From assembly GCF_044324785.1 (NCBI RefSeq), contig NZ_CP172129.1: a DNA stretch of 64,000 nt; one strand, given 5' to 3'. The position numbers were made by a program, and so were the translations under genes. The notes beneath the pieces were generated by a model that did no database searches, was not told the DNA's origin, and saw only the letters and a list, made by a program, of their open reading frames with translations. The DNA comes from Escherichia coli. GTDB taxonomy: Bacteria; Pseudomonadota; Gammaproteobacteria; Enterobacterales; Enterobacteriaceae. Of the stretch, positions 7,440-9,835 are shown piece by piece; within the stretch, counting starts at the first letter, position 1; each line of letters begins with the position of its first letter.

Positions 7440-7712
7440 GTTGATATGGCGTTCACTGTTATATTCTGACAACCAGTTTGCCGCCAGTTCCCGCTTTTCA
7501 TCCAGCGTTCTGAACAGACAAAAACCGAGTATTTTTGTTCGGTATGTCCGGTTAAAACTCTCGATAAAAGCGTTCTGCGCCAACTTACCTGATTGGGTAA
7601 TCTCCAGTTTTACTACATGTTTTTCTGCGCATTACGTCCGTGTTGGATAAAAAAAATCCTGGCCATAATCTATGCGAATCATAGCTGGATAGACATGGTT
7701 TTCCGCAATCCT
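7440..7712 (-). pseudogene. C-terminal fragment of an IS3-family transposase OrfB, cut by the IS629 insertion
   Basis: Minus-strand translation gives …AFIESFNRTYRT…NWLSEYNSERH…, a typical IS3-family OrfB C-terminus; abuts the IS629 left inverted repeat. Confidence 0.5.
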
Positions 7713-7766
7713 TGAACCGCCCCGGGAATCCTGGAGACTAAACTCCCTGAGAAAGAGGTAAACAGG

Positions 7767-8093
7767 ATGACTAAAAATACTCGTTTTTCCCCCGAAGTCC
7801 GTCAGAGGGCGATTCGTATGGTTCTGGAAAGTCAGGGCGAATATGACTCACAGTGGGCGGCAATTTGTTCCATTGCCCCAAAGATTGGCTGTACACCGGA
7901 GACTCTGCGTGTCTGGGTACGCCAGCATGAGCGGGATACCGGAGGCGGTGATGGCGGGCTCACCACCGCTGAACGTCAGCGTCTGAAAGAGCTGGAACGT
8001 GAAAATCGTGAACTGCGCCGCAGTAACGATATCCTTCGCCAGGCTTCCGCTTATTTTGCGAAGGCGGAGTTCGACCGCCTCTGGAAAAAATGA
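7767..8093 (+). CDS. IS629 transposase OrfA
   Basis: 108-aa HTH protein [19 protein letters not shown]… matching IS629/IS1203 OrfA. Confidence 0.85.
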
Positions 8094-8980
8094 TGCCACT
8101 GCTGGATAAGCTGCGTGAGCAGTACGGGGTCGGACCGCTATGCAGCGAACTGCATATTGCCCCGTCAACGTATTACCACTGTCAGCAACAGCGACATCAT
8201 CCGGATAAACGCAGTGCCCGTGCGCAGCGCGATGACTGGCTGAAGAAAGAGATACAGCGCGTATACGATGAAAATCACAAGGTATACGGTGTGCGTAAAG
8301 TCTGGCGTCAGTTGTTACGGGAAGGTATCAGAGTGGCCAGATGCACTGTGGCACGTCTCATGGCGGTTATGGGACTTGCCGGTGTTCTCCGTGGTAAAAA
8401 GGTCCGTACGACCATCAGCCGGAAAGCCGTTGTCGCAGGCGACCGCGTAAACCGTCAGTTCGTGGCAGAACGTCCTGACCAGTTGTGGGTGGCTGATTCT
8501 ACTTACGTCAGCACATGGCAGGGGGTCGTCTATGTGGCGTTCATCATTGATGTGTTTGCCGGATACATCGTGGGGTGGCGGGTCTCATCGTCTATGGAAA
8601 CGACATTCGTGCTGGATGCTCTGGAGCAGGCGTTATGGGCCCGTCGACCGTCCGGCACAGTCCATCACAGTGATAAAGGTTCTCAGTATGTATCGTTGGC
8701 CTACACACAGCGGCTTAAGGAAGCCGGATTACTGGCATCAACAGGAAGTACAGGCGACTCGTATGACAACGCGATGGCGGAGAGCATCAATGGCCTTTAC
8801 AAAGCGGAGGTAATACACCGTAAGAGCTGGAAAAACCGTGCAGAAGTGGAACTGGCCACACTCACGTGGGTGGACTGGTATAACAATCGACGATTGCTGG
8901 AAAGGCTGGGCCATACTCCTCCGGCAGAAGCAGAAAAAGCTTATTATGCTTCCATCGGAAACGATGATCTGGCAGCCTGA
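8090..8980 (+). CDS. IS629 transposase OrfB (DDE integrase-core domain)
   Basis: 296-aa ORF overlapping orfA by 4 bp; DDE region …[10 protein letters not shown]…[15 protein letters not shown]…. Confidence 0.85.
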
Positions 8981-9117
8981 GTTCACAGATAAAACACTCT
9001 CCAGGAAACCCGGGGCGGTTCACCTACAGAGTACCGCTACCACTTGTGAAGCTGGCAGATTCAGATTGTTTTCAATCGACAACGCCTCATAGTTAAAGTC
9101 ATCAACGACATTGAACG

Positions 9118-9545
9118 TGTGAAGTGGTCAACAAAAACTGGCCACCGAGTTAGAGTTTTTCCAGTATCGATTTTCCGATTCGTTTGGGGATAACCCACCG
9201 TTATATTCGTGCGGTCTTAGTGCGCTGTAATATCCAACGATATAGACCGTTATGGCGTGAGCGGCCTCGCAGAAGCTTCGTAACCCACCACCGGCATCCA
9301 TTCGTTCTTCAGACTCCTGAAGAAGCGTTCCATTGGGCTGTTATCCCAGCAGTTTCCGCGCCGGCTCATACTCTGCCTGATCTGGTATCGCCACAATAAC
9401 TGCCGGAACTGCCTGCTCGTATCGCTGTGGAACATCACCCCGCCGGGCTTACCCGTCCAGATATAGGTCACATCACCGCACCACACCTGTATAGCGGCGT
9501 AATCCCCAAAAACGATGCTGGTTGTCAGTAAACAAGCCATGAATG
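9118..9545 (-). pseudogene. IS911-like (IS3 family) OrfB remnant with internal deletion and 5' truncation
   Basis: Minus-strand frames give …[13 protein letters not shown]…[22 protein letters not shown]… and …[20 protein letters not shown]…; an IS3-type terminal repeat (TGAAGTGGTCAACAAAAACTGGCCACC) at about 9118. Confidence 0.6.
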
Positions 9546-9559
9546 ACAGTCGTTCCTGA

Positions 9560-9835
9560 AATCATAAGACCTGGAGGAGTGTATGCTCCGTCGCAGTAAT
9601 TACCACGATACGCTTGCAGAATTTTTTCCAGTTACTGAAGCGTGAACGGATAAAGAAAAAGCTCTTCGGAACGCGGGAAAACGCCTCCAACGATATTTTT
9701 GAACATCGAAATGTTTTATAACAATAAGCGTCGGCATGGTTCCTGCGAACAGATGTCAACAATAGAATATAAAAACAATTATTATCAACAACTTGGAAGG
9801 AGTAAGACTACCCGTGGCGATTCAATATTAGATCA
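9560..9835 (+). pseudogene. Short C-terminal fragment of another IS3-family transposase
   Basis: Plus-strand frame …FYNNKRRHGSCEQMSTIEYKNNYYQQ… resembles an OrfB C-terminus; weak. Confidence 0.3.

Follow-up and report, generated by a model that had tools for sequence, protein, structure and literature searches.

In ColV plasmids, virulence modules are flanked by insertion sequences (ISs) (PMC2626276). In one of them, pAPEC-1, the interval from ompT (MM1_0125) to etsA (MM1_0136) has been described as carrying IS1351 (IS3 family, IS407 group; 82%), IS1203 (96%), IS629 (96-99%) and IS911 (96%), the IS1203/IS629 open reading frames (ORFs) being 96-99% identical to U06468 and X51586 in Table S4 (PMC2626276, Tables S2 and S4). 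Those IS calls date from 2009, and the fourth element treated below is a 'hypothetical protein' in pAPEC-1 (PMC2626276). Here we describe the same tract in a 64,000-nucleotide stretch of Escherichia coli contig NZ_CP172129.1 (hereafter the window), the leading segment of a ColV/ColBM-type IncFIB virulence plasmid. The tract is already known, and neither its elements nor their mechanism is new; what is added is detail only, namely the literal nesting of the elements, a CCT target duplication with its empty site, two deletions, the fourth element and the order of the late events. We consider it very likely that the tract is accumulated IS debris at the seam between hlyF-ompT and etsABC, with one live-looking IS nested inside.

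Along the window, mig-14 is followed by hlyF (an SDR oxidoreductase by annotation), ompT, the IS tract and then etsA, etsB and etsC, which bears out the original prediction that the tract separates hlyF-ompT from etsABC. The cluster spans 7347-9824, ends 610 bp upstream of etsA (start 10434) and comprises four IS3-family elements, one complete and three broken. All four pieces that had been named from the sequence proved to be real: an IS629 (96.1% identity to a chromosomal copy that the NCBI Prokaryotic Genome Annotation Pipeline (PGAP) names 'IS3-like element IS1203 family', which is not the ISfinder type sequence), a C-terminal IS3-family fragment (E=3e-87), an IS911-like fragment (E=1e-155) and an OrfB fragment on the opposite strand (E=3e-88). 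The proposed limits of 7440-9835 located the tract, with ends that had to be corrected, as the left fragment has its TG end 93 bp to the left of the proposed start. The IS parts have a GC content of 50-56% versus 27-39% in the AT-rich flanks. Since the plasmid carried by E. coli ATCC 11775 (NZ_CP033091.2) is colinear, at 99.9% identity, with the first 42 kb of the window, its RefSeq annotation was transferred to the window by coordinate; at the tract, PGAP gives one IS3 family transposase with a programmed frameshift and three IS3-type pseudogenes. Across the 4.5 kb that surrounds the tract, the sequence matches pECOS88 (NC_011747.1) at 100% identity, as it does many other plasmids of E. coli and Salmonella. 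Comparison with reference ColV plasmids, which had been proposed as a check, thus yielded the same tract in pECOS88 and the same IS calls in pAPEC-1. The full structure is present in at least 273 PLSDB records (at least 80% coverage, up to 100% identity), among them pECOS88 and Salmonella plasmids; all record counts given here are approximate, as they reflect coverage thresholds and the redundant sampling of a clonal plasmid family.

Members of the IS3 family encode OrfA and a -1-frameshifted OrfAB transposase, and move in a copy-out, paste-in manner via a circular intermediate. The complete element of the tract, of the IS629/IS1203 type, conforms to this family in its length and ends (1310 bp, within the family range of ~1.2-1.5 kb, with repeats TGAACC...GGTTCA of the 5'-TG...CA-3' type) and in its two ORFs with a -1 frameshift, for which PGAP gives a joined coding sequence. 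The ALIL pseudoknot at the frameshift region (Rfam RF01497) scored 120.2 bits against a gathering score of 50, and was the only structured RNA found in an Rfam scan of 7000-10500. By ISfinder convention, an isoform has at least 95% nucleotide identity to a named reference. Between the window copy and the IS1203-annotated copy there are 51 nucleotide differences and 12 amino acid differences (OrfA 2/108, OrfB 10/296), so the description of this IS629 as intact applies to its ends and ORFs only. The OrfB differences include a Phe-to-Ser change beside the first catalytic Asp, which gives ADSTYV here and ADFTYV in the IS1203-annotated copy. Around 8507-8530, near this Asp, Ser and Val in OrfB stand at positions that are Phe in the IS1203-annotated copy (ADFTYV, GFVYV). 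Because both inverted repeats, orfA, the DDE orfB and the frameshift site with its pseudoknot have been kept, IS629 is plausibly mobile, and it is the only element of the tract that is plausibly active, a competence predicted from its sequence.

Evidence for nesting comes from the borders of IS629. The trinucleotide CCT stands at both ends of the element and occurs once in plasmids that lack IS629, as expected from the short (3-4 bp) target duplication of the IS3 family. In these IS629-free plasmids the alignment segments overlap by exactly 3 bp at the single CCT, and the IS1351-like remnant is contiguous; with a junction-spanning probe, 59 PLSDB records were identified that have such a site. 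After in silico removal of IS629 and one CCT, the minus-strand reading frame ran continuously across the joint (...VLCRIAENHVYPAMIRIDYGQDF...), indicating that IS629 lies inside the IS1351-like fragment and not beside it. The original prediction that IS629 abuts this fragment was therefore right about adjacency and missed the nesting, since the fragment resumes at 9026-9119 on the far side of IS629. The coordinates of all features are collected below.

Features of the IS tract between ompT and etsA (window coordinates)
Feature	Position	Strand	Remarks
IS1351-like remnant (IS3 family, IS407 group), distal part	7347-7712	-	79% to positions 841-1207 of intact ~1207-bp relatives
Left CCT target-duplication copy	7710-7712	.	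same CCT borders both IS629 ends
IS629/IS1203-type IS (IS3 family, IS51 group)	7713-9022	+	1310 bp, complete; ungapped 96.1% to IS1203-annotated copy (PGAP name; not the ISfinder type sequence)
Left inverted repeat of IS629, TGAACCGCCCCGGGAATCCTGGAGA	7713-7737	+	25 nt, 92% complementary to 8998-9022
orfA of IS629	7767-8093	+	108 aa; Pfam HTH_Tnp_1
Programmed -1 frameshift region	8048-8164	+	A6 run 8085-8090 at orfA/orfB overlap; ALIL pseudoknot
orfB of IS629	8090-8980	+	296 aa; Pfam HTH_21 and rve DDE domain
Right inverted repeat of IS629, TCTCCAGGAAACCCGGGGCGGTTCA	8998-9022	+	25 nt, pairs with left repeat
Second CCT copy	9023-9025		within IS1351-like proximal remnant
IS1351-like remnant, proximal part	9023-9119	-	92% to reference positions 743-816
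IS911-like remnant	9120-9489	-	IS911 positions 1248->734; E=1e-155 vs intact IS911
Intact right inverted repeat of IS911-like remnant, TGAAGTGGTCAACAAAAACTGGCCACCGAGTTAG	9120-9153	-	essentially identical to the IS911 right inverted repeat
Fourth IS3-family remnant	9487-9824	+	positions 868-1229 of 1229-bp relative; 79.3% to intact element

The remnant that hosts IS629 consists of the last ~461 bp (7347-7712 plus 9026-9119) of an element of ~1207 bp, and retains its own TG-terminal end at 7347 (TGTAAACAGACTCG...). Its distal part is the decayed C-terminal end of a transposase gene, the conceptual translation of the remnant contains Pfam rve_3, and PGAP annotates a pseudogene at 7405-7628. Intact relatives, found on Citrobacter and E. 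coli plasmids, are 79% identical over 7347-7712 and ~91-92% identical over 9049/9050-9123. The end of the IS911-like element truncates the remnant at ~743-746 of the ~1207-bp reference; because this end is complete at its contact with the IS1351-like fragment, the joint represents an insertion of IS911.

The IS911-like remnant corresponds to the last 515 bp of the element, the 5' 733 bp being gone together with the left inverted repeat and orfA. It carries two internal deletions, one of 15 bp between 9420 and 9421 and one of 128 bp at a GCTTACC heptamer (9447-9453). Compared with an intact IS911-family copy, it is 93.7% identical over 350 alignment columns and 100% over 43 nt (range 93.7-95.3%), and PGAP annotates a pseudogene at 9128-9489. 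The stretch thus has the identity of IS911 and its characteristic right inverted repeat, and lacks what makes a complete IS911 (both repeats, orfA and orfB within ~1250 bp). As it holds positions 734-1248 only, minus the two internal deletions, this piece is immobile.

The fourth IS3-family remnant comprises the last ~360 bp of its element and, despite frameshifts and stop codons, is still recognizable as Pfam rve_2; PGAP places a pseudogene at 9571-9839. Its own end (...CCGTGGCGATTCA) lies at 9824, and the inverted repeats of the intact relative begin TGAATCGCCACGG. The remnant overlaps that of IS911 by 3 bp (9487-9489), and since the joint connects internal points of two oppositely oriented elements, it is a deletion. 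With one end each and no 5' half, all three remnants are inert. PGAP names the intact relatives of the fourth element 'IS3 family transposase' only. The terminal 68 nt of a relative, at its right inverted repeat, match DNA beside clbA, and IS1400 and IS1351 have been listed together in the pks island; IS1400 as a name for the fourth element is a lead and not a result.

A tail-to-tail arrangement of an IS911-like fragment and a relative of the fourth element also occurs, at ~3000-4014, in the unrelated plasmid pMB06173 (NZ_JBRNIK010000002.1), and at first looked like the same composite. Common origin was rejected on three grounds: the breakpoints differ, the fourth-element parts are 81% identical compared to 93% for the IS911 parts, and the two IS parts of pMB06173 are separated by an intron remnant that has no counterpart at the ColV joint. 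That remnant is a 52-nt hairpin with a perfect 18-bp stem formed by two inverted 3' ends of one group II intron, each of which adjoins the homologous site, coding for DxTYI, in its IS. The arrangement suggests that the group II intron homes to the conserved DxTYI segment in several IS3-family transposase genes.

These comparisons also bear on whether the pieces might be the remains of one composite mobile unit, or of an imported block that brought ets or hlyF-ompT. On both sides the cluster is bounded by a genuine IS end, that of the IS1351-like element at 7347 toward ompT and that of the fourth element at 9824 toward ets, and among 659 records no direct joining of the flanks was found, so that each module may have arrived with its IS. 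However, the two copies that would bracket a composite are absent, as none of the four elements recurs within the 64-kb window. The best references for the four elements are all different (96%, 94%, 79% and 79% identity), a comparison within the window found no mutual similarity among them, and their decay differs widely, from 79% to 96%. IS629 moreover has its own target duplication and empty site, the similar pair in pMB06173 has other breakpoints and another origin, marked by group II intron remnants, and the IS1351-like/IS911-like/fourth-element joints have so far been seen only in a ColV-type context. A single composite unit is accordingly very improbable, and independent, nested IS3-family insertions, as originally predicted, provide the better account of the tract: four different references, no mutual similarity, and the CCT duplication with its empty site in 59 plasmids.

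Plasmids that differ at the tract made it possible to order its late events. In p147 (NZ_CP023384.1), there is no IS629, the CCT is single, and the 128 bp missing from the window are still present between two copies of GCTTACC. In p1ColV5155, IS629 is likewise absent and the CCT single, but the 128-bp deletion is present. A probe for the fourth element together with an adjoining IS911 fragment that has kept the 128 bp returned 10 records. Three allelic states can thus be distinguished, with neither IS629 nor the 128-bp deletion in at most 10 records, the deletion only in ~49, and both in at least 273; the 15-bp deletion and both outer joints are common to all three. The existence of an IS629-free plasmid with the deletion, together with the rare undeleted records, indicates that the 128-bp deletion came first and IS629 second. 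We also sought the ancestral IS-free site, and found the flanks 7147-7346 and 9825-10024 joined without the cluster in 0 of 659 records, which implies that, in the sampled plasmids, the IS1351-like/IS911-like/fourth-element core dates back as far as the linkage between the two modules. The three allelic states offer a cheap lineage marker for ColV/ColBM plasmids.

Based on these data, we propose the following history. The IS1351-like and fourth elements would be old residents, each ~79% identical to its nearest intact relatives and with broken frames. An IS911-like element would then have inserted into the IS1351-like element, after which a deletion running from IS911 internal point 734 to internal point 868 of the fourth element, with a 3-bp overlap at the joint, would have eliminated the 5' half of each of the three elements together with anything between them. 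The IS911 remnant would subsequently have lost 15 bp and then 128 bp, the latter between the GCTTACC repeats, and in the last step an IS629/IS1203-type element would have transposed into the IS1351-like remnant, duplicating CCT. Anatomy, target duplication with empty site, allelic series and later hits in other plasmids were observed directly; the order of the early events we infer. The following weighs against this reading. No plasmid in an earlier state was found, nor an intact IS911, IS1351-like or fourth element at the locus, and the Phe-to-Ser change next to the first catalytic Asp of OrfB makes the competence of IS629 a prediction only.

As for the nature of the tract, it probably has no dedicated function and is neutral, so that insertions are tolerated and persist, there being nothing under selection in it. 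There is no indication that it would regulate etsA. The ordinary explanation, that the module junctions of mosaic plasmids are built from ISs, fits best. IS material is present at other module junctions of the window as well (15406-15600, 16905-18294, 21348-22576 and 24313-25331, by coordinate transfer from NZ_CP033091.2), in the form of an IS200C fragment that follows etsC, an ISNCY pseudogene and, upstream of iss and iroB respectively, IS2 and an integrase-core pseudogene. In the region upstream of ompT, a 132-amino-acid ORF at 6247-6645 (+), opposite ompT, is called 'outer membrane protease' (WP_001332050.1) by RefSeq in some records and is absent in others; it looks like a doubtful gene call.

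Later rearrangements were followed in nine sampled plasmids that keep the ompT-side flank without the ets-side flank. All nine break inside the tract, which has no weight for a hotspot given that the selection itself forces the breakpoint there. In four of the sampled plasmids, an IS1 lies at the equivalent of 8069, inside IS629, with a common left junction and three different right-hand partners; in four, an IS1 lies at the equivalent of 9397, inside the IS911 fragment, again with one left junction and differing right-hand partners, one of them with an extra 406-bp deletion (8954-9359); and in one, an additional IS629 copy lies inverted at the site. Within the IS1-8069 group, NZ_OY754410.1 (a hen isolate) carries at 5440-8016 an ISEc12 (IS21 family; istA/istB) that entered the IS1351-like remnant at ~7581-7585 with an apparent CCAAC duplication. 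Within the IS1-9397 group, NZ_PP215916.1 carries at 6362-8623 a group II intron (ltrA, WP_001189111.1) inside IS629 at 8507|8508, exactly within the codons ADSTYV|STW, which surround the transposase's first catalytic Asp, and the same intron is probably present in the IS629 of NZ_CP123241.1. A right junction at window position 16843 is common to two plasmids with different IS1 left junctions, one at 8069 and one at 9397. This sharing of junctions fits IS1-mediated adjacent deletions combined with IS1-IS1 recombination that removed etsABC. In total, there are ~6 distinct secondary events among the nine sampled plasmids, and each later junction looks like one event that then spread or recombined. 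These losses offer a reason why hlyF-ompT and etsABC are linked but separable in ColV typing, since in part of the plasmid population ets is lost through IS1-associated rearrangements that start in the tract. In AP026497.1, which is IS629-free, the ets operon has given way to an IS91 that begins, from 4104, at window-equivalent position 10428, where etsA starts; this breakpoint is just outside the IS tract.

It was originally proposed that repeated IS3-family insertions at one site mark a hotspot, and this part did not hold up: the insertion points of IS629 and IS911 differ (7712 and 9119), and each junction is identical across hundreds of plasmids, which indicates that each event happened once and was then inherited. 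Recurrent insertion into the same target in separate lineages was not seen; every junction exists in a single form, and positions differ between elements. IS911 can target sequences resembling its own ends. A true hotspot, in which the DNA attracts IS3-family transposases, for instance through sequences of the resident elements that resemble inverted repeats, would account for four IS3-family elements within 2.5 kb, two of whose joints are end-precise insertions into another IS3-family element, for the further mobile elements taken up by the tracts of other plasmids, and for the ~265 of 659 records that keep one flank only, with a breakpoint in or next to the tract (a raw proportion, not length-normalised). 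However, the insertion points are all different (7712, 9119, 8069, 9397, ~7585 and 8507), each junction is invariant among its carriers as expected of single events, and the later hits are mostly from outside the IS3 family (IS1, an IS21-family element and a group II intron). In addition, the joint of IS911 and the fourth element is a deletion and not an insertion, and other module seams of the same window have collected IS debris too. We therefore regard a true hotspot as unlikely, and the data speak for it weakly; a weaker version holds, in which the tract readily accepts mobile DNA and is often the breakpoint where ets is lost, being neither specific to the IS3 family nor confined to one target.

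It is conceivable, though improbable, that the resident IS3-family remnants themselves attract mobile elements and so make the tract a preferred seam for gain of mobile DNA and loss of etsABC. Attraction may arise from IS3-family transposases that target ends resembling inverted repeats, or from group II introns that home to the conserved DxTY-coding segment, as at 8507 in the IS629 of one ColV plasmid and at homologous sites in the two ISs of pMB06173. If this were true, the tract would be a measurable, mechanism-based hotspot. The preferred reading is still that of debris accumulated at a module seam.

Compared with the published annotation of pAPEC-1, pECOS88 and ATCC 11775, the tract has the same IS1351, IS1203/IS629 and IS911 ORFs between ompT and etsA, with PGAP calls at the same coordinates; that annotation consists of ORFs only, and does not include the nesting, the CCT duplication, the deletions, the identity of the fourth element or the allelic series. 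The complete element shares with IS629/IS1203 of Shigella sonnei and E. coli O111/O157 its length of 1310 bp, repeats that begin TGAACCGCCCCGGG, a 3-bp target duplication, the orfA/orfB arrangement with -1 frameshift and ALIL pseudoknot, and the DDE rve domain, and differs in that PGAP gives the window copy the generic name 'IS3 family transposase' only. In pAPEC-1, the top ISfinder match given for the left remnant is IS1351 of Salmonella Enteritidis (82%, PMC2626276), and a C-terminal integrase-core motif is present in the conceptual translation of the window remnant. At ~79-82% to intact relatives, however, with the last ~461 bp only and a stop codon, this remnant is a relative and not an isoform of IS1351. 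Finally, the third piece has the right inverted repeat and the 3' part of orfB of IS911 (IS3 group; Shigella dysenteriae), at 94-95% identity to IS911-family copies named by PGAP, but retains positions 734-1248 only, with two internal deletions, and its identity lies at or just under the usual 95% line for an isoform.

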